Shown: piece after piece, positions 30,475 through 44,552 of the stretch
Position numbering within the stretch: position 1 is the first letter of the stretch
Layout: each line of letters opens with the position of its first letter
Origin: Candidatus Cloacimonadales bacterium
Lineage (GTDB): Bacteria > Cloacimonadota > Cloacimonadia > Cloacimonadales > JAIOQZ01
Length of the DNA stretch: 64,000 nucleotides
Reading direction: 5' to 3'
Assembly (NCBI GenBank): GCA_963665015.2
Contig: CAXXSY010000003.1
Location: 64,373-128,372 of the forward strand
Notes under the pieces: model-generated
The model's database searches: none
The model's input: only the letters and a program-made list of their open reading frames with translations
What the model was told of the DNA's origin: nothing
Translations under genes and position numbers: made by a program

Positions 30475-32034
30475 CTACACCGGAATGTTGCCGTGCTTCT
30501 TGGGCGGCAGCGATTCGCTCTTGGTGGTGAGGACTTCCAGGGCGTCGATCAGCCGGACGCGCGTTTCCGAAGGACGGATCACCGCGTCGATGTACCCGCG
30601 CTCGGCCGCGTTGTACGGATTGTTGAACGCCTCTTCGTACTCGGCGATCAGCTCCTTGCGAAGCTCCGCGGGATTCTCGGACGCCTTCAGGCGCTTGCGG
30701 TAGCCGGACACGATGTTCACCGCGCCCTGCGCGCCCATCACCGCGATTTCGGCGGAGGGCCACGCGAAAATCATGTCGCCGCCCAGGTGTTGCGAGCTCA
30801 TCGCGATGTAGGCACCACCGTAGTCCTTGCGGGTGACCACGGTAAGCTTGGGAACCGTCGCTTCCGAGTAGCTCCACAGGAGTTTGGCGCCGTGCCGGAT
30901 GATGCCGTTCCATTCCTGCTCGCAGCCCGGGAGGTAGCCCGGGACATCCACGAAGGTGATGATCGGCAGATTGAAGGCGTCGCAGAACCGGATGAAGCGG
31001 GAAATTTTGTCGGATGCGTCGATGTCGAGGCAGCCGGCGAGAACCAGCGGCTGGTTGCCAATGATGCCCACCGCGCGACCGTTCATGCGACCGAAACCGA
31101 TGATAGCGTTCTGCGCGTAGAACTGGTGCGGCTCGAAGAATTCGCCGTTATCGACAATCGAACGAACGATGTCCTTTATATCGTAGGGTTGACGCGCGCT
31201 GTCGGGTACCATCGTGTCGAGCTCGGGACAGAGACGTCCGGGATCGTCGGTCGGCTGGTAGCGCGGCGCGTCTTCCATGTTGTTGTTGGGCAGGTAGCTC
31301 AGCAGCGCTTTGACCTGCTCGATGGCGTCCTCGTCGCTCTCGCAGGCGAAGTGCGCGTTGCCACTCTTGGTGTTGTGTGCCATGGCGCCGCCGAGGTCTT
31401 CGAAAGTGGTGTTTTCGCCGGTGACCGTCTTGATCACGCTCGGGCCGGTGATGAACATGTAGCTGGTGTTCTTGACCATGAAAACGAAGTCGGTCATGGC
31501 GGGTGAATAGACCGCGCCACCCGCGCAAGGTCCCATGATGGCGGTGATCTGTGGGATCACGCCGGAGGAACGCGCGTTGCGGAAGAAGATGTCGCCGTAG
31601 CCCTTGAGCGAGTCGATACCTTCCTCGACGCGTGCGCCGCCGGAATCGTTGAAGCCGACGATCGGAACGCCGGATTTCAGCGCCAGGTCCTGAATCTTGC
31701 TGATCTTGGCGGCGTGCTTCTCGCCCAGCGATCCGCCGCGCGAGGTGAAGTCCTGCGAATAGGCGAACACCGGACGACCGTTGACCAGTCCGTGGCCGGT
31801 GACCACGCCGTCGGACGGGATATCGTGTTTGGGCATGTCAAAATTTGTGGAGCGATGGTGGACGAACATGTCGATCTCGCGGAAGGTACCCGGATCGAAG
31901 AACATGTCGATGCGCTCGCGGGCGGATAATTTTCCCGCCTTGTGCTGCTTTTCGATGCGCGCTTCGCCGCCCATCTCTTTCGTCTTGCCGATTCGTTTTT
32001 CCAGCAGTTCGATTTTCTCTTTTACCGTACTCAT
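30475..32034 (-). CDS. methylmalonyl-CoA carboxyltransferase 12S subunit / acyl-CoA carboxylase beta
   Basis: 519 aa. AGKLSARERI, GFNDSGGARVEEG and GPCAGGAVYSPA motifs, and a duplicated crotonase-like carboxyltransferase fold pattern. Confidence 0.9.
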   Translation of the reverse strand: MSTVKEKIELLEKRIGKTKEMGGEARIEKQHKAGKLSARERIDMFFDPGTFREIDMFVHHRSTNFDMPKHDIPSDGVVTGHGLVNGRPVFAYSQDFTSRGGSLGEKHAAKISKIQDLALKSGVPIVGFNDSGGARVEEGIDSLKGYGDIFFRNARSSGVIPQITAIMGPCAGGAVYSPAMTDFVFMVKNTSYMFITGPSVIKTVTGENTTFEDLGGAMAHNTKSGNAHFACESDEDAIEQVKALLSYLPNNNMEDAPRYQPTDDPGRLCPELDTMVPDSARQPYDIKDIVRSIVDNGEFFEPHQFYAQNAIIGFGRMNGRAVGIIGNQPLVLAGCLDIDASDKISRFIRFCDAFNLPIITFVDVPGYLPGCEQEWNGIIRHGAKLLWSYSEATVPKLTVVTRKDYGGAYIAMSSQHLGGDMIFAWPSAEIAVMGAQGAVNIVSGYRKRLKASENPAELRKELIAEYEEAFNNPYNAAERGYIDAVIRPSETRVRLIDALEVLTTKSESLPPKKHGNIPV

Positions 32035-32242
32035 TCAAACCTCTTGTCATAGCCCGCGCACGGCGAGCCGTCGTTATTGTTTTCTATCCGATAGAAAAAA
32101 GTATTTTGCGTTCATAAGGGCAAGTTTTTTTTCGCGAAGAGGGTAGAAACCATTGAACCAGACATGGTTATCGGGTGGGGAATCAGGTATGAAACAAAAT
32201 GTTGTAAATCCAACACTAAATCGTCTCGACCGGTTATTTTAC

Positions 32243-32271
32243 TTGACATAAACCTTGATTTTCATTATCAT
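32243..32271 (+). promoter_or_regulatory. candidate sigma70-type promoter for the AT-rich operon
   Basis: TTGACA (32243-32248), a 17-nt spacer, then TATCAT (32266-32271). A second TTGACA at 32361 has no good -10 element. Confidence 0.3.
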
Positions 32272-32411
32272 AATAATGAAGGTTGAATAGAATGGGGAAG
32301 AGATGATTAGCTTCTGCAGCGCCTTGATTTATATTAAATAATGACTAAAACAAAAAAAACTTGACATGCTGTTTACACATGAATCTCCTTATCCCATAAA
32401 AGGAGGTGACC

Positions 32412-32858
32412 ATGTTCCAGTCAAATGGAAGATACTCATCGATGTTCAATATCGGAAAAGATATTGTCAAGCGAGAACATTCCGTACCGTTGAAAAGCAT
32501 TGAGAAGTTCTATCTCAATAATTTGCGGGAATATTTCGAGAAATATTTAGCCGGAGTGTCAGCTTGGAATTCTGGTGATCAGGTTACCTATAATACCGTT
32601 TCCAGCTTATGCGCATTTCCGAGCATTGGCAGCTTACAGAAGATCAAGATTGAAGAATCATACACCAAGAAGTACAATCCCGTTTCAACATTGCATTTTA
32701 TTGTTGATTATATCAGCGATGTCTCACAAATGAAACCTGTAAAACAAGAAAGCAGAGAGGCTTTGAGTGAGATTTTTGATTACTTTTATAAAATTCACGA
32801 AAAAGCCGAGAGCTCAGAAGACATTCAAAGTGATATAATTGATAATTTCGACGACTAA
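32412..32858 (+). CDS. hypothetical small protein with strongly acidic C-terminal tail (island gene A)
   Basis: ATG at 32412, 5 nt after AGGAGG (32401-32406). 148 aa with no motif I recognise. The C-terminus is EKAESSEDIQSDIIDNFDD. Its stop lies 3 nt before gene B. Confidence 0.6.
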   Translation: MFQSNGRYSSMFNIGKDIVKREHSVPLKSIEKFYLNNLREYFEKYLAGVSAWNSGDQVTYNTVSSLCAFPSIGSLQKIKIEESYTKKYNPVSTLHFIVDYISDVSQMKPVKQESREALSEIFDYFYKIHEKAESSEDIQSDIIDNFDD

Positions 32859-32861
32859 CAT

Positions 32862-34229
32862 ATGCTTTCCCAATCAATTAGACGCAATGAGCTCTTAAGG
32901 TGCGTAAGGTCCATTCTTGAGTTTATCGAGGAATTGAGCGCAAAAGATTACCATTCCCAAAGTATCGTTGAATTATTGGATGCTTACAGATTGACACTGA
33001 ACTCACTATACGGATGGCTTCAATATATTAAACCATCAGACCTAATACCGAAACATAGTAACGAAATCCATAATATTCTTGTTAATGGCATCTCCACCAG
33101 CCTGCGATACATCCAAAGATCACAAACAAAATATACTCCGTGGAGCATGCTAACATTATTAGAGGAACTTGTAGGCAAGATATATGAAGATCAAAGAATC
33201 GTTATTAGGCCAAAATGGCGATGGCATTATCAAATCGCCACAAAGCCGATGAATATCAAACTCTCTGAGTTACTAGCATACATGTGCGCTAATGATCCCA
33301 CCATAATCGATGAGTGTAATAAACTCGAGATGATGAGAAAAATTCGTTTTGTTTCCTTTCCAATAATGGAAGTAGATAATTATCTCGCACACATACTTTT
33401 TTTTCACGAAATTGGACATCTTATCCAGGAAGAAATGTTTGATAACATTATCCCCAAGAAACTTTCAGAAATGATGTATGACAAGAATAGAAAAGATGAT
33501 AATGACGACATGAATGCCAGGCAGATAACCGTTTACATCAACATGCTCCTACAGGAAATTATCCCAGATGTTGTGGCATATCTCCTCGTAGGACCAGCAT
33601 ACTTTATTGGTTTATTCACAGCGCAAAACTACTCTTTAGTTAACGGAAGCGATAAATTGCCAACAAAACAGGAGTGCTCAGATATTATAAAGAGGTCGTC
33701 ACTACCAACATACCCGCACCCTCCTCTTGCATTACGCTTAACATATCTTTATGACTATTATTATAAGAGAGACATAAAAGAGAAGTATCAAGGCTGCTAC
33801 TACAGACTGAAACCGTTTAGTGATTGTAACGACTACACACACAAAGAAACAATAGCTAGATACAGCTCCACCGAACCAAATATTGATATAGCATACAGGA
33901 TATTTATTGCAATTATGGAAGCAGTCAAACCAGATATCAAGAAAAGACTCGATGGTTTAGTTTATTCTGGCGCTTCCCGTACTGATATCGAATATTTGCT
34001 CAATAAATTGAGACACGATATTCCACCAGTAGAACTCAAGAATGGAAACGTTGCCGAAATTGGAGATGTTTTTCTTGCCGCCTTTTTTTATGTATATTTC
34101 GAGATAATTCGCAAAGAAAAGAATCCTGTTTCCTATTGTGAGAAAATGGAAACCATGAATAAGTTAATTAAATTTACTTTCAATGGAATAAGATATAAGG
34201 ATATGTATAATGCCTGTTTATCGCGATAG
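32862..34229 (+). CDS. hypothetical 455-aa protein with HExxH zinc-metallopeptidase motif (island gene B)
   Basis: FFHEIGHLIQEE at aa 181-191 (nt 33405-33419 encode HEIGH). A downstream EIIPDVVAYLLVGPAY (aa 232-247) could supply a third ligand, as in ImmA/IrrE- or M48-like gluzincins. The rest of the protein is unrecognised. Confidence 0.6.
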   Translation: MLSQSIRRNELLRCVRSILEFIEELSAKDYHSQSIVELLDAYRLTLNSLYGWLQYIKPSDLIPKHSNEIHNILVNGISTSLRYIQRSQTKYTPWSMLTLLEELVGKIYEDQRIVIRPKWRWHYQIATKPMNIKLSELLAYMCANDPTIIDECNKLEMMRKIRFVSFPIMEVDNYLAHILFFHEIGHLIQEEMFDNIIPKKLSEMMYDKNRKDDNDDMNARQITVYINMLLQEIIPDVVAYLLVGPAYFIGLFTAQNYSLVNGSDKLPTKQECSDIIKRSSLPTYPHPPLALRLTYLYDYYYKRDIKEKYQGCYYRLKPFSDCNDYTHKETIARYSSTEPNIDIAYRIFIAIMEAVKPDIKKRLDGLVYSGASRTDIEYLLNKLRHDIPPVELKNGNVAEIGDVFLAAFFYVYFEIIRKEKNPVSYCEKMETMNKLIKFTFNGIRYKDMYNACLSR

Positions 34230-34833
34230 AATTATCGAATTAATGAGTTTGCCGCCAGATAGAAAAGATGCTCTATACATTACGCCACAATTGGATTTGG
34301 AAAGCATTGGAGATATAGGTATCGATTTACGATTGTCAAACCAATTTATTGTTTTCAATGCTGATTCATTGTGTCATATAGATTTTCTTGATTCATCTGA
34401 GGGTAAAGAGAGAATTAGAAAATATCAAAAATATGTCGTTGTTCCCCCAAATAAACCATTTATTCTACACCCCAACACACTCGTATTAGGATCAACTTTG
34501 GAGTTTGTCTCAATGCCCAATAACCATTCAGGATCAATTGATGGTAGATCGTCTTGGGCTAGACACGGACTAATTATTGCTACTGCGTGTGCAATAGATC
34601 CAGGCTTCAAAGGCACAATTACACTTGAATTAACTAATCTCGGGGAATCTCCGTTGTACTTGTATCCAGGAGTTAGAGTTATCCAGCTTTTTCTGGAGAA
34701 TTTGGGAAATAAGGCCAGAGATTATTCAAAAGGGTGCCGAAAATACCGTGTTCAAGTTGGTCCTGAATTTAGTAAAATTCATGACGATAGAGAGATGCCA
34801 ATACTTAGAAAAATGTACGGAAGAAGTCACTAA
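34210..34833 (+). CDS. dcd: dCTP deaminase family protein (island gene C)
   Basis: It aligns by eye along the full length of E. coli Dcd. DGRSSWARHGL matches GRSSLARLGL, IDPGFKGTITLELTN matches IDPGWSGCIVLEFYN (catalytic Glu retained, E140), and the N-terminal DRDI-like RDRIIE is present. The start overlaps gene B by 20 nt. Confidence 0.8.
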   Translation: MPVYRDRIIELMSLPPDRKDALYITPQLDLESIGDIGIDLRLSNQFIVFNADSLCHIDFLDSSEGKERIRKYQKYVVVPPNKPFILHPNTLVLGSTLEFVSMPNNHSGSIDGRSSWARHGLIIATACAIDPGFKGTITLELTNLGESPLYLYPGVRVIQLFLENLGNKARDYSKGCRKYRVQVGPEFSKIHDDREMPILRKMYGRSH

Positions 34834-36911
34834 TACTTAATCAACTCTTCCCGCTCCAGATAGAACGCATCATACTGCTCTCTCACCGTCTGATTCTCCG
34901 GTTTTTCGAGCTTCGGGTCGCTACTGACGAGGTCGAATGCGTCCTTGCGAGCCAGCTTGAGCCACTCCTGATGGCGTAAGAGATTCGCGTGGCGGAAATC
35001 GGGCATGCCGGACTGCCGCGTGCCAAAGAAGTCGCCCGGACCGCGCAGGTCGAGATCCTTCTCGGCGATATCGAATCCGTCGTTGGTCTTTGCCATGGTG
35101 GAGATGCGCTCCCAGCCGTTGTGCGAGATGGGCGGGTAGTAGATCAGGTAACACGAAGACTGCTCCGCGCCGCGCCCGACCCTGCCTCGTAGCTGATGCA
35201 ACTGGCTCAACCCGAAGCGCTCGGCGTGCTCGATCACCATCATGGTCGCGTTGGGGACGTCGATGCCCACCTCGATCACGGTCGTCGCCACCAGGATCGA
35301 AAATTCCTTCTGCTTGAACGCGTGCATGATCTCGTCCTTCTCGCGAGACTTCATCCTGCCGTGCAAGAGCGCCGACGCGTACTCGGGAAAGATGTTCTCC
35401 GAGACATCCTTGTAGAGCGTCTCCGAATCGAGCAGATAGCTCTTCTCCGATTCCTCCACCAGCGGGCAAACCAGATACGCCTGACGCCCCTTCCGCAGCT
35501 CCTTGCGCATCTCGTTGTATATCTGAAACTTGTGCTCCTGGTTCTTGTGCACGGTGTGGATCGGCTTGCGTCCGGGCGGCATCTCATCGATCACGCTGAC
35601 ATCGAGGTCGCCGAACGCGGTCATGGCCAGCGAACGCGGGATGGGTGTGGCGGACATGTGCAAGAGGTTCGGTCTCTCGCCTTTCTCGCTGAGCAGCGCG
35701 CGCTGTCGAACGCCGAAGCGGTGTTGCTCGTCGATGCAGATAAAGCCGATGTTGTGGAATCGCACCTTCTTCTGGATCAGCGCGTGCGTTCCGAAGACGA
35801 GGTCGATCTCGCCGGCCGCGATTTTCTCGAGCGTCGCTTTCTTGCCCTTGTAGTTACCGCCCTTTAGCAGCGCGATACGTAGTTCCGGCTGGTTTTCGAG
35901 CAGATTCGTCGCGCTGTGGAAGTGCTGTTCGGCAAGGATTTCGGTGGGAGCCATGAGCACTGCCTGATAGCCGTTCTCGACCGCCAGCAGCATGGCGAAG
36001 AGGGTCACGATGGTCTTGCCCGAGCCGACGTCGCCTTGCAGGAGCCGGTTCATCTGACTGGTCGATTCCATGTCATGAACAATCTCGCGGATCACCCGTT
36101 GCTGCGCCTTGGTGAGCCGGAACGGAAGGATGTTTTTAAGCTGCGTGGTAAAGGTTTTCTGCACGGGTAGCGAAACGCCGGTCGGGTTTTTCTTCCGCTC
36201 GCCATAGACACGTGCCAGAAGCAGTTGATGGTAGAAGAATTCCTCGTAGATAAACCGCTGCCTGACCTTCTCGATGTCGGTCTCCGGCACCGGGAAGTGC
36301 ATCTTCTCGAGCGCCGCTTTTCGAGGCGGGAAATCGTAGTGTTGAAGGATGTGTTCCGGTAGGGTTTCCGGGATGTAGGCGTGGAATTTCTGAAACGCGG
36401 CGACCACCAGCTTGCGCATGATGGTGACGGTAAGCTTGTCGGTCAGCGGGTAGATGGGCAGGATGAGCCGGTTTTTCCAGAAGTCGTCGGGTGCGTCCTC
36501 CGCGTCGAGGATTTCGAATTCGGGATGGATGATCTGCGGCATGCCGTGATATCCGCTCACCATTCCCGAAACCCAGATGGACGCGCCCTCTTCGAGCTGC
36601 TCCGTCAGCCACTTGCCGTAGCGAAACCACGTACACATCAGCACCGCTTCGCCATCGGTTACCGAGACGTTGAGCTGCCGCTTGCCGCGTGATGTGCGAT
36701 GCTCGTCGATCGCCTGAACCTTGCCGATGATCGCGCTCTGCCGATCGATCTCGAGGTCTCCGACCCGCAGCATGGTCTTGCGATTGATGTAGGCGCGTGG
36801 AAAGCTCTCGATAAGATCGCCGATCGTGTGGATATTCAGTTTGGCCAGCAGGTGGGCACGGTGTTCACCGACACCCGAAAGATACTGTACTTCCACACTC
36901 CAGGGGTTCAT
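34830..36911 (-). CDS. recG: ATP-dependent DNA helicase RecG
   Basis: N-terminal wedge/OB region, LQGDVGSGKT Walker A, DEQHRFG, and a C-terminal helicase domain with QLHQLRGRVGRG. Confidence 0.92.
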   Translation of the reverse strand: MNPWSVEVQYLSGVGEHRAHLLAKLNIHTIGDLIESFPRAYINRKTMLRVGDLEIDRQSAIIGKVQAIDEHRTSRGKRQLNVSVTDGEAVLMCTWFRYGKWLTEQLEEGASIWVSGMVSGYHGMPQIIHPEFEILDAEDAPDDFWKNRLILPIYPLTDKLTVTIMRKLVVAAFQKFHAYIPETLPEHILQHYDFPPRKAALEKMHFPVPETDIEKVRQRFIYEEFFYHQLLLARVYGERKKNPTGVSLPVQKTFTTQLKNILPFRLTKAQQRVIREIVHDMESTSQMNRLLQGDVGSGKTIVTLFAMLLAVENGYQAVLMAPTEILAEQHFHSATNLLENQPELRIALLKGGNYKGKKATLEKIAAGEIDLVFGTHALIQKKVRFHNIGFICIDEQHRFGVRQRALLSEKGERPNLLHMSATPIPRSLAMTAFGDLDVSVIDEMPPGRKPIHTVHKNQEHKFQIYNEMRKELRKGRQAYLVCPLVEESEKSYLLDSETLYKDVSENIFPEYASALLHGRMKSREKDEIMHAFKQKEFSILVATTVIEVGIDVPNATMMVIEHAERFGLSQLHQLRGRVGRGAEQSSCYLIYYPPISHNGWERISTMAKTNDGFDIAEKDLDLRGPGDFFGTRQSGMPDFRHANLLRHQEWLKLARKDAFDLVSSDPKLEKPENQTVREQYDAFYLEREELIKY

Positions 36912-42004: not shown

Positions 42005-44254
42005 CTATTTCAGTATCATGACCTTGCGGGTCTGGTCGATGTTGTCGGCGGTCATGCGGATGAAGTAGATTCCGGACGGAAGACCTTCCGCGTCCCAGGT
42101 GAGGGTGTTGTCGCCCTTCTTGCCGTTCGGCGTCAGTTCTTCCACCTTGCGGCCCCTGATGTCGAACATGGTGAATCTCGCCCTGCCATCCTGTTTCAAC
42201 GAATAGCTGATCGTGGTCACCGGATTGAACGGATTGGGATAGACACCGCTGAACTCGGTCAGATACGTGACGACCGGCGGCTCATTGAATCCGCCCTCTT
42301 CGGCGATGGTCACCGAGACGGGACCGAACAGGGTCGAGGAGCCGTTCAGCTCCACGCTCTCCAGCCAGTAGTTGTACGTGGAATTCTTCGTCACATCTTC
42401 GTCGATATATCGGTAGCTTGCGCCGTCGGAGGCGTTTTCTCCTGGGATAAGCTGAAGGTTGACACGCATCGCGTCGTCGAGAACGTCGTTGTCCGCGCGC
42501 AGCAGGTTGTAACCCGCGATATCGCACTCGGACTGGGTCGCCCACTCGATCTTCGCAAAATTTTGCGAGGTGACGGTCGCGGAGAAGCTGGACAGCTCGA
42601 CCGGCAGGGTGGAGCCGTCGCCCTCGTTCATCACGAATTCCTCGCCGCCGTCGCGGAGCGGAGAATCGAAGGTCCAGGTGAAGGTCGCGGTCTGATCGAC
42701 GTAGTTCCACACCACGCCGGGGACAGCTACCCATACCCCGCCGTTGTTCCAGACCAGTTCGTCCGGCTCGAAGGGCAGTCCGTCGAAGTGCAGCACGATT
42801 TCCACAGGCTGGATCGTGCCGGTGACGGTCACTTCGTAGGTAAGGCATGCGTTGACGGGAATCATGACATCGCCGTTGCCGACGGTGACCACGACATCCA
42901 CCGCGATCGCCGCGCCGACTTCTTCCGGGTCGATATCCACGTCCGGATCAACCACCACCGCGCCGCCGCCGTTGTAGTCGTACGGATCGAGCGGCTCGAC
43001 AGCCACGGGCAGCGGATCGTCGTCCGCCGGGGTGCCGTTCGCTGTGCCGGTGCCGGGAATTGGAGCTTGAAAAATGTATGCAGAGCCATAACCATCATCC
43101 CATGCGCCAGCAATTGCATACTCACTATTGATAGAAACAGACCAGCCAAAATAATCTAGTTCAGCTCCATCACTCGCTATCAATTTAACTTCCTGAGCCC
43201 ATGCTATTCCTTCTCTCCGATATATATATGCCGAACCGGAATTAGAACCGAGGGTATCATCAAGATATGCACCCACAATTGCATCTTCACCAGAGATAGA
43301 TACTGAAATACCAAAACAGTCACTTTCCGCTCCATCATTGGCCACCAGTTTTGTTTGCTGAGTCCATGTTGAACCTTCTCGATGGAAAATATATGCTGAG
43401 CCGGAGCTTGCACCAAGATCACCATCACCAGGTACTCCAATAATTACATCATCACCACAAATTGATACTGATCTGCCGAAATAATCGCATTCTACGCCAT
43501 CATCTGATTTCAATTTGGCTTGTTGAGACCATATTGTACTTTCTTTATAGAATATATATGCCGAACCACTCATGTTTCCTAAATCATCATCATTTGCAGC
43601 ACCAATAACCGCATAATCACCATCGATTGAAACAGACCATCCAAACGTGTTACCCAAACCTCCATCATCGGCTGTAAGTTTTTCATAATGATTCCATTCT
43701 GTTCCTTCTCGATGATAAACGTATGCTGAACCGGATGAGAAGTTTAAATCGTCATCCCCATAGGCACCCACAATCGCATAATCACCTGATATAGATACGG
43801 AATAACCGAACCTGTCTTCCTCGGCGCCATCATATGCAATTAGTTTTACTTGTTGATTCCATGATGAACCATCTCTTTGGAATATATAGGCCGAGCCTGA
43901 ATTGTTACCAAAATCGTTGTCACCATACGCACCAACTATCACGAAATCTCCAGAAATTGAGACAGAAAAACCAAATATATTGTTCGCCGCTCCATCGTTA
44001 GCAGTCAATTTTGCTTGTTGTGTCCAGCCTACAATATCACGATGGAAAATATATGCAGAACCAGAATTATTACCCAAGTCATCATCACAATAAGCCCCAA
44101 CAACCATATAATCACCTGAGATCGAAACCGAATAACCGAATCGATCATTTGATCCCCCATCACTCGCGAGGAGCTTCTGGATTTCGTTCCATTCCGCGTG
44201 GATCGTGGTTACCGTGAAGATGGTAATAAGCAGGATAAAAAGTGCCTTTTTCAT
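42005..44254 (-). CDS. FG-GAP-like beta-propeller repeat protein with T9SS C-terminal sorting domain
   Basis: Signal peptide MKKALFILLITIFTVTTIHA. About 7-8 tandem ~50-aa units (D.FG.SVSISGDY.IVGA..DD....SGSAYIF.R.G..W.Q..KL.A.DG). The C-terminus is VYPNPFNPVTTISY...GIYFIRM...VMILK. Confidence 0.75.
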   Translation of the reverse strand: MKKALFILLITIFTVTTIHAEWNEIQKLLASDGGSNDRFGYSVSISGDYMVVGAYCDDDLGNNSGSAYIFHRDIVGWTQQAKLTANDGAANNIFGFSVSISGDFVIVGAYGDNDFGNNSGSAYIFQRDGSSWNQQVKLIAYDGAEEDRFGYSVSISGDYAIVGAYGDDDLNFSSGSAYVYHREGTEWNHYEKLTADDGGLGNTFGWSVSIDGDYAVIGAANDDDLGNMSGSAYIFYKESTIWSQQAKLKSDDGVECDYFGRSVSICGDDVIIGVPGDGDLGASSGSAYIFHREGSTWTQQTKLVANDGAESDCFGISVSISGEDAIVGAYLDDTLGSNSGSAYIYRREGIAWAQEVKLIASDGAELDYFGWSVSINSEYAIAGAWDDGYGSAYIFQAPIPGTGTANGTPADDDPLPVAVEPLDPYDYNGGGAVVVDPDVDIDPEEVGAAIAVDVVVTVGNGDVMIPVNACLTYEVTVTGTIQPVEIVLHFDGLPFEPDELVWNNGGVWVAVPGVVWNYVDQTATFTWTFDSPLRDGGEEFVMNEGDGSTLPVELSSFSATVTSQNFAKIEWATQSECDIAGYNLLRADNDVLDDAMRVNLQLIPGENASDGASYRYIDEDVTKNSTYNYWLESVELNGSSTLFGPVSVTIAEEGGFNEPPVVTYLTEFSGVYPNPFNPVTTISYSLKQDGRARFTMFDIRGRKVEELTPNGKKGDNTLTWDAEGLPSGIYFIRMTADNIDQTRKVMILK

Positions 44255-44552
44255 GATCGTACTCCTTTCCATTTTTCATGGATATGATGGTGGATGTCAT
44301 GCCGGCATCGTTTTCAGCCGGATTTGATTTCGTTGATCATGTTTGGAGGGAATACCAGTTGTCACCCCGGCAGCCGGTATATCTAACCGATATAAATGAA
44401 TGATATGCGATGGAATTAATTTTTGTCAAGCGGTATTTTGCGAATTATTTAATAAAATGTGTCGAATGTGGAAACGAATTTCTCACCGACTACGAATCAT
44501 TCAACCGTGAAGAGAAAGAAAATACGAAGGACGTCCGCGTCCCGGCAATATC

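Follow-up and report, generated by a model that had tools for sequence, protein, structure and literature searches.

Why should a gene for deoxycytidine triphosphate (dCTP) deaminase, an enzyme known from nucleotide housekeeping, lie in an AT-rich strip of DNA that differs from its surroundings, and begin inside another reading frame? The question is raised by gene C of a 64,000-nucleotide stretch of a Candidatus Cloacimonadales bacterium (contig CAXXSY010000003.1), the whole of which is referred to here as the window. The answer that we reached is that gene C encodes a genuine dCTP deaminase (Dcd) of the dUTPase fold and is the last member of a horizontally acquired three-gene cassette, A-B-C, whose members are obligately linked and co-evolve. 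We lean, if only slightly, towards a role of this cassette in genetic conflict. The features on which the argument depends are the following.

34210-34833, plus strand: gene C, 207 amino acids (aa), dUTPase-fold dCTP deaminase, from family and PDB matches and alignment
34549-34629, plus strand: codons of the catalytic set S114, (S115), R118 and E140, plus D130, from alignment with Escherichia coli Dcd (S114 at 34549-34551, R118 at 34561-34563, D130 at 34597-34599, E140 at 34627-34629)
32862-34229, plus strand: gene B, 455 aa, with an M48-like zincin signature, from the open reading frame (ORF) and the B-family alignment
33405-33419, plus strand: codons H182-E183-x-G185-H186 of B, invariant in a 50-sequence alignment
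33555-33569, plus strand: codons of E232...D236 (ExxxD) of B, candidate third metal ligand, invariant columns of the same 50-sequence alignment
32412-32858, plus strand: gene A, 148 aa, with its ATG 5 nucleotides (nt) after AAGGAGG

The product of gene C matches the NCBIfam equivalog TIGR02274 (dCTP_deam) with 139.3 bits against a curated cutoff of 92.8, and the Pfam family PF22769 (DCD) with 104.5 bits (E-value 7.6e-30) against a cutoff of 27, in both cases over residues 20-190. The closest solved structures are the bifunctional Dcd:dut of Mycobacterium tuberculosis (2qxx, 2e-25) and Dcd of E. coli (1xs1, 9e-24), and the E. coli protein (taken from NC_000913.3) aligns with it over the full length at 36% identity. 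It shares with known Dcds the catalytic Ser/Arg/Glu, the motifs GRSS-x-R and PGF-x-G-x-ITLE, and the C-terminal arm. The strings that an earlier, sequence-only reading of this DNA had quoted (YRDRIIEL, DGRSSWARHGL, IDPGFKGTITLELTN and RKYRVQVGPE) are all present in the 207-aa ORF. The conservation of the Ser/Arg/Glu set, which was also claimed there, is borne out by a 14-sequence alignment, in which S114, S115, R118 and E140 are invariant and fall in the catalytic Ser/Arg/Glu columns of E. coli Dcd; we take the catalytic residues of that enzyme to be S111, R115 and E138. On sequence grounds gene C is a genuine dUTPase-fold dCTP deaminase with every deaminase catalytic residue, and its product is probably active as such. 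The polypeptide holds the Dcd domain alone, and the N-terminal kinase domain of the family described by Tal et al. (bioRxiv 10.1101/2021.04.26.441389) is absent from it in Pfam and NCBIfam scans. The product had no match among the PADLOC models at E<=1, and no second Dcd-like gene was found within the 64-kb window. The earlier description of a minimal stand-alone enzyme holds for the polypeptide; in the genome gene C does not stand alone but is the third gene of the A-B-C cassette.

The evidence for the cassette comes from other genomes. On the contigs of twelve Dcd homologues (42-88% identity), eleven have an ORF of 127-162 aa, then one of 440-508 aa, and then Dcd; at the twelfth (L191) B and C alone are called, with an unannotated gap at the position of A. 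Gene boundaries in these contexts mostly overlap or abut, the surroundings differ entirely between loci, and one of the twelve is archaeal (Nitrosotenuis). One genome for each of 185,579 species was then queried with the B alignment and, reciprocally, with the C alignment. From the B scan came 15 loci, distributed over Spirochaetota, Acidobacteriota and delta-, beta-, gamma- and epsilon-proteobacteria. Dcd lies directly 3' of B in every evaluable locus, and B and C form a single ORF of 722-746 aa in six loci of Thermoanaerobaculia and Pyrinomonadaceae. The C scan gave 80 loci. When the loci were pooled and deduplicated, 57 Dcds adjoin B, 8 are fused to B, 23 are without B, and 5 lie too near a contig edge. 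Fusions of B and C are seen in Thermoanaerobaculia, Pyrinomonadaceae, Ignavibacteria and others, and account for 7 of 153 B cluster representatives. Altogether, B-C linkage is found in about 65 unrelated bacterial and archaeal loci, and the order A-B-C is recurrent.

The three proteins also vary together. Mirror-tree correlations calculated on 33 non-redundant loci were r=0.85 for B-C, 0.84 for A-B and 0.79 for A-C, each with a Mantel p<=0.001. Mean pairwise identity is 17% for A, 23% for B and 44% for C, so that A and B diverge far faster than C, which is the pattern of a conserved effector with fast-evolving partners. A, B and C are an obligately linked, co-evolving unit. The sequence-only reading had proposed that regulation of the deaminase would be supplied in trans by A and B, and the conserved A-B-C unit, the B-C fusions and the co-evolution lend strong support to that suggestion. 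Two side observations concern single loci. About 400 bp downstream of one B-C fusion, a 296-aa ORF gives a weak second match to the Dcd profile (33 bits; L014:12520-13410, the same as L146:10981-11871). At L010:6674-7893, B is split into ORFs of 347 and 85 aa with a gap before C, and this copy may be a decaying cassette.

In order to place gene C among its relatives, we built a neighbour-joining tree of Dcds with E. coli Dcd as the root and 200 bootstrap replicates. One clade contains every Dcd that is linked or fused to B, as well as six apparently B-less exceptions, the split being recovered in 194 of 200 replicates, and the remaining B-less Dcds lie outside it. Among the exceptions, L147, L153 and L156 have an upstream ORF of 250-297 aa that overlaps or abuts the Dcd gene and has a B-like N-terminus by eye, with no match to the B hidden Markov model, and L189 has a truncated B. 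The product of gene C lies deep inside the B-linked clade and does not cluster with the B-less Dcds of housekeeping type, which was the outcome of the phylogeny that the earlier reading had proposed as a check. The deaminase triad is retained in the cassette clade (S114 in 65/65, R118 in 64/65, E140 in 65/65). The clade has substitutions of its own, with W116 in place of L, 'TA[TSC]x' in place of 'TAGF' and A158 in place of C, and its Dcds carry a C-terminal extension that terminates in F or W. The Asp of 'IDPGF' (D130 in gene C), the equivalent of the dUTPase catalytic Asp, is kept in only 23 of 65 cassette-clade Dcds, with H, A, E or Q otherwise, compared to 20 of 20 B-less Dcds. Its loss next to an invariant deaminase triad is a hint that dUTPase chemistry, or the recognition of the sugar, has been relaxed or altered in these Dcds. 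Gene C itself keeps D130 but reads 'TACAIDPGF' where the M. tuberculosis bifunctional type has 'TAGF-IDPGF'.

How the cassette came to its present site can be read from its composition and from related genomes. The surrounding features are as follows.

32184-34831, no strand assigned: low-GC island with the A-B-C cassette, 2,648 bp, delimited by blastn against the syntenic locus L031; GC about 0.365
30475-32034, minus strand: carboxyltransferase gene, one island flank
34830-36911, minus strand: recG, the other island flank
32243-32271, plus strand: promoter-like candidate TTGACA-17-TATCAT (11/12) upstream of gene A, from a consensus scan

The island is occupied by the three co-directional genes. 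The stop codon of gene B is at 34227-34229 and the ATG of gene C at 34210, an overlap of 20 nt, so the start of C within B was described correctly by the sequence-only reading, and the stop codon of gene C overlaps that of the convergent recG. The AT-rich codon composition noted there was confirmed as well: the GC of genes A, B and C is 0.37 and their GC at third codon positions (GC3) is 0.42, 0.38 and 0.28, respectively, against a GC3 of 0.73-0.82 in five flanking genes. No 2.6-kb stretch of the window has a lower GC than the island, which is at about 0.364 compared to a mean of 0.527 with a standard deviation of 0.036, that is, about 4.5 standard deviations below. Flanking direct repeats, a tRNA gene or an integrase marking the island were not found within the window, and the promoter-like site at 32243-32271 remains a candidate only, because the total of such sites in the region is not above that of shuffled sequence.

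The closest Cloacimonadales relative, the metagenome-assembled genome CAXXPU01 (locus L031), has a carboxyltransferase protein 98% identical to that of the host and shows synteny on either side, with a nucleotide identity of about 85%. The blastn homology runs to 32183 and resumes at 34832; the corresponding junction between carboxyltransferase and recG in L031 is 757 bp long and holds no cassette and no convincing gene. A second Cloacimonadales relative (L032) has two unrelated genes in the same junction. With one relative empty and the other carrying different cargo, the junction behaves as a variable hotspot. A, B and C were absent from the 80 related loci examined, and GC of the cassette is below that of its surroundings in nearly every locus where it occurs. 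The cassette is horizontally acquired; the foreign origin claimed by the earlier reading is supported because the site is empty in the closest relative. Two side observations belong to these regions. The cargo of the second relative (L032:6198-7900) consists of a 254-aa ORF and a 189-aa ORF, the latter HD-domain-like by eye. Elsewhere in the window, 42005-44272 on the minus strand encodes a 755-aa protein with many tandem 'FGxSVSISGDY...GSAYIF' repeats, which resembles secreted repeat proteins and has no relation to the cassette; a second patch of low GC and strong GC skew in the window (43-44 kb, GC 0.43) is accounted for by the 5' half of its gene.

The neighbourhoods of the two kinds of Dcd differ. 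B-less Dcds are accompanied by the conserved housekeeping genes for TyrRS, trigger factor, 5-formyltetrahydrofolate cyclo-ligase, YebC and DnaG. Among cassette neighbours no family is recurrent except a phage-type integrase (4 of 141) and IstB (2 of 141). Individual cassettes are inserted within a type I restriction-modification operon (L010) or lie near HsdR-like and DUF3427/NOV_C genes (L004), a ScoMcrA-like SBD-HNH gene with PIN and MNT genes (L190), PglZ of a bacteriophage exclusion (BREX) system (L126), Tn7-like TniB and TnsB (L192), or IS110 and IS66 in an archaeon (L028); another adjoins ribonucleotide reductase and Fpg (L026). Restriction-modification, type IV restriction or toxin-antitoxin genes were present within 10 kb in 4-5 of 12 Pfam-annotated contexts. 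This fraction of roughly one third is near the threshold of the defence-association score (>0.33) used by Tal et al. (bioRxiv 10.1101/2021.04.26.441389), and with the BREX neighbour it is no more than suggestive of defence.

Protein B had no significant match in Pfam, PADLOC, NCBIfam or the PDB sequences, and its profile retrieved only coiled-coil noise from the PDB sequences. The size of its family rests on an exhaustive profile search, which gave 645 cluster representatives at E<=1e-3 and 291 at E<=1e-10, mostly 430-520 aa long with some of about 720 aa; word-indexed searches with a single sequence or a 6-sequence profile gave only 1-3 relatives. Residues invariant in the 50-sequence alignment include H182, E183, G185, H186, E232, D236, G244, P287 and R292, and HExxH is present in 126 of 126 full-length homologues. 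The AlphaFold2 model of B, built on the same alignment, is mostly helical and has a mean predicted local distance difference test (pLDDT) score of 91 and a predicted template modelling (pTM) score of 0.91, compared to a pLDDT of 37.6 with a 3-sequence input. In this model, strands 111-118 and 160-167 precede the HExxH helix (176-195), a long helix (213-243) bears E232 and D236, and large helical domains are predicted at both the N- and the C-terminus. The sole recurrent Pfam family among B homologues is Peptidase_M48, with weak matches in 11 of 50 (best E 0.0088, below the gathering score) that span the HExxH region. We regard B as a new family with an M48-like HExxH...ExxxD zincin signature and predict that it is a peptidase. 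E232 would be the third ligand of a gluzincin, the metal-ligand roles being assigned from the motif. Protein B is probably soluble because its only hydrophobic segment holds the invariant E and D.

Protein A is acidic (isoelectric point about 5) and probably helical, and likewise had no significant match in Pfam, PADLOC, NCBIfam or the PDB sequences. The most likely start of its gene is the ATG at 32412 behind AAGGAGG, rather than the GTG at 32406. At its mean pairwise identity of 17%, the sole invariant residue is one Phe in a C-terminal helix of the type 'FFxxLxE'; an equivalent ORF of 143-197 aa lies directly 5' of B in most loci, including those with a B-C fusion. In one B-family representative of 598 aa (P0228), residues 25-101 weakly match the A profile and are followed by a full B domain. 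If this protein is a natural fusion of A and B, as it may be, it would speak for a physical interaction between the two.

What might such a unit do? The reading that we favour, with a confidence a little above even, is that A-B-C is an undescribed conflict or anti-phage cassette in which Dcd serves as a dCTP-depleting effector gated by B and A. It would be a conflict module directed against phages or other mobile elements, possibly an abortive one. The Dcd trimer would be the effector, converting dCTP to dUTP or dUMP; the conversion would starve replication, and dUTP might flood the pool. More speculatively, B would be physically attached to Dcd as a sensor or switch of the metalloprotease type, with A as an inhibitor, substrate or adaptor of B. 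Enzymes of the dUTPase fold close their active site with a C-terminal arm. Upon a trigger, and again more speculatively, B might cleave A or the clade-specific C-terminal arm of Dcd, by which the deaminase activity would be released. A more ambitious version appears possible but doubtful to us, namely that the cassette is a widespread three-component immune system of bacteria and archaea, in which the M48-like zincin would act as an infection-sensing proteolytic switch on a dUTPase-fold deaminase and invading DNA would be uracilated. The part of this version by which nucleotide-depletion immunity would have converged on a fold unrelated to that of the known defensive deaminases is held just as tentatively.

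The conflict reading is supported because depletion of dCTP by deamination is an established anti-phage mechanism, and also by the intact active site, the conserved A-B-C order, the B-C fusions, the separate clade, the mirror-tree correlations, the horizontal acquisition and the invariant zincin signature. Several results weigh against it. None of A, B and C matches any PADLOC model. Only about one annotated context in three has defence genes nearby, and ordinary metabolic genes surround many of the loci. A PADLOC scan of 141 random cassette neighbours gave few convincing matches, and the B-less control also gave matches, which look false positive (DnaG and kinase look-alikes). B was not found in phage collections, plasmid collections or IMG/VR, an absence that is weak evidence given the divergent queries, and it was never seen with another effector, unlike many modular defence sensors. 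As to its predicted activity, the case for a peptidase consists of a short motif and sub-threshold M48 matches; Foldseek with the B model gave no significant neighbour in the PDB (best E 0.6) or in BFVD (best E 0.059, 'Peptidase'), the top BFVD rows being named 'Peptidase' and 'Zincin protease' at non-significant values. Which protein would cleave which, in the gating mechanism, is entirely conjectural.

Four other explanations have to be weighed against this one. The cassette could be a selfish addiction module resembling toxin-antitoxin systems, in which C acts as a toxin by depleting dCTP or by poisoning with dUTP, A and/or B counteract it, and post-segregational killing maintains the cassette. 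Its small size, tight overlaps, horizontal mobility and low GC would all fit, as would the fast evolution of A and B and the association with insertion sequences, integrases, Tn7-like elements and toxin-antitoxin genes (PIN, MNT, SocA/Panacea). A 450-aa enzyme with invariant motifs would however be an unusual antitoxin, and the module was not found on plasmids, where addiction modules thrive. We consider this account unlikely, with the reservation that many toxin-antitoxin-like modules also act in phage defence, so that it overlaps with the conflict reading rather than excluding it. A regulated accessory route from dCTP to dUTP or dUMP, for thymidylate supply or pool balance, with B as a chaperone, assembly factor or regulator, would agree with catalytic residues that are those of housekeeping Dcd, with the several loci among metabolic genes (including the one beside ribonucleotide reductase and Fpg), and with the confinement of B to the B-linked Dcd clade. 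The sporadic distribution across bacteria and archaea without conserved synteny, the foreign composition, the lack of the cassette at the corresponding site of the nearest relative and in the 80 related loci, and a divergence of A and B that is atypically rapid for metabolic regulators speak against such a route, and we give it a low probability.

It is also improbable, in our judgement, that B and C form a two-step pathway of nucleotide or DNA modification, in which B would be a metal-dependent hydrolase or transferase acting on the substrate or product of the deaminase and the output would be a modified nucleotide, a signal or a DNA base. Gene fusion is typical of consecutive pathway enzymes too, the lack of any significant structural or sequence relative leaves the chemistry of B unconstrained, and the relaxed dUTPase-equivalent Asp in the clade hints at altered chemistry; yet M48 zinc peptidases are the only proteins to which B is recurrently similar, the similarity being centred on HExxH, and no glycosyl-, methyl- or hydroxymethyl-transferase genes travel with the cassette. 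The remaining explanation, already named by the sequence-only reading, is that gene C is an ordinary housekeeping dcd, mono- or bifunctional, that was acquired horizontally and has A and B as unrelated neighbours. Its full length, its intact motifs and its score above the TIGR02274 equivalog cutoff are what one would expect of such a gene. The linkage of A, B and C in about 65 loci, the fusions and the co-evolution are not, and gene C shows neither the vertical inheritance, nor the core neighbourhood, nor the host-like composition of a housekeeping orthologue. The B-linked clade that holds gene C stands apart from the B-less Dcds with housekeeping synteny (bootstrap 194/200), and on this basis we rejected the explanation, to which hardly any credence is left.

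If the conflict reading is right and the cassette is defensive, dCTP depletion would have been invented at least twice, on unrelated enzyme folds, and a new sensor or regulator family without a Pfam model would join the immune repertoire, mainly in uncultured lineages of the kind that screens centred on E. coli and Bacillus miss. For annotation, more than 60 species genomes carry the label 'dCTP deaminase' on a gene whose role is probably not a housekeeping one. Together with the confident model of B, the B-C fusions offer a handle on the switching of a dUTPase-fold enzyme, and cultured carriers exist: Pseudoxanthomonas sp. Root630 and CF125, Dokdonella fugitiva, Kolteria novifilia, Aporhodopirellula rubra and Bosea sp.

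Compared to known enzymes, the nearest in fold are the housekeeping Dcd and bifunctional Dcd:dut (1XS1; 2QXX/2QLP; Methanocaldococcus jannaschii 1OGH), which belong to the same fold family and have the same length. The clade of gene C differs from them in being linked or fused to B, horizontally mobile and without housekeeping synteny, and in having its own residue signatures and a relaxed Asp130. For protein B the comparison is with M48 metallopeptidases (HtpX, Ste24, BepA), with which it shares HExxH on a strand-preceded helix and a downstream invariant ExxxD, although it is apparently soluble, has only sub-threshold matches and no significant fold match, and is dedicated to a Dcd partner. 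Proteases of the M56 type such as BlaR1 transduce signals. The CapH/CapP-type metallopeptidase regulators of cyclic-oligonucleotide-based anti-phage signalling systems (CBASS) reportedly target a transcriptional repressor and occur with effectors of many types. B would resemble them as an HExxH peptidase through which a signal of stress or infection leads to the activation of an immune effector; it differs in being coupled, at times by fusion, to a single family of enzymes, with no evident DNA-binding partner. AvcD, from the AvcID system, is a relative of the defensive dCTP deaminase of Tal et al.

That deaminase is the comparison that matters most for function. It is a 576-aa protein whose N-terminal domain is a kinase and whose C-terminal domain is a zinc-dependent cytosine deaminase, and in its family dCTP depletion by deamination is a proven anti-phage mechanism (bioRxiv 10.1101/2021.04.26.441389). 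The sequence-only reading had mentioned an additional N-terminal domain in the defensive enzymes, which does exist and is a kinase; its implied assumption that their deaminase has the fold of Dcd was mistaken, and with a different deaminase fold gene C is no minimal version of that family. The two systems are alike in the predicted outcome, which is conversion of dCTP to deoxyuridine nucleotides, in having an extra regulatory moiety, and in being sporadic and partly associated with defence islands. They are unlike in that gene C encodes a predicted metal-independent trimeric dUTPase fold, unrelated in catalytic fold, accompanied by a zincin-like partner, either separate or fused, and by a third protein of small size. 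By this analogy gene C might work like the family of Tal et al., of which it is no member. Neither a Dcd-fold (COG0717/PF22769) protein in defence nor a pairing of Dcd with a metalloprotease came up in full-text literature searches, and a review of January 2026 lists the family of Tal et al. as the sole defensive dCTP deaminases. Conflict systems that deplete nucleotides are already known, and what the A-B-C cassette would add to them is a different fold and a new partner family.

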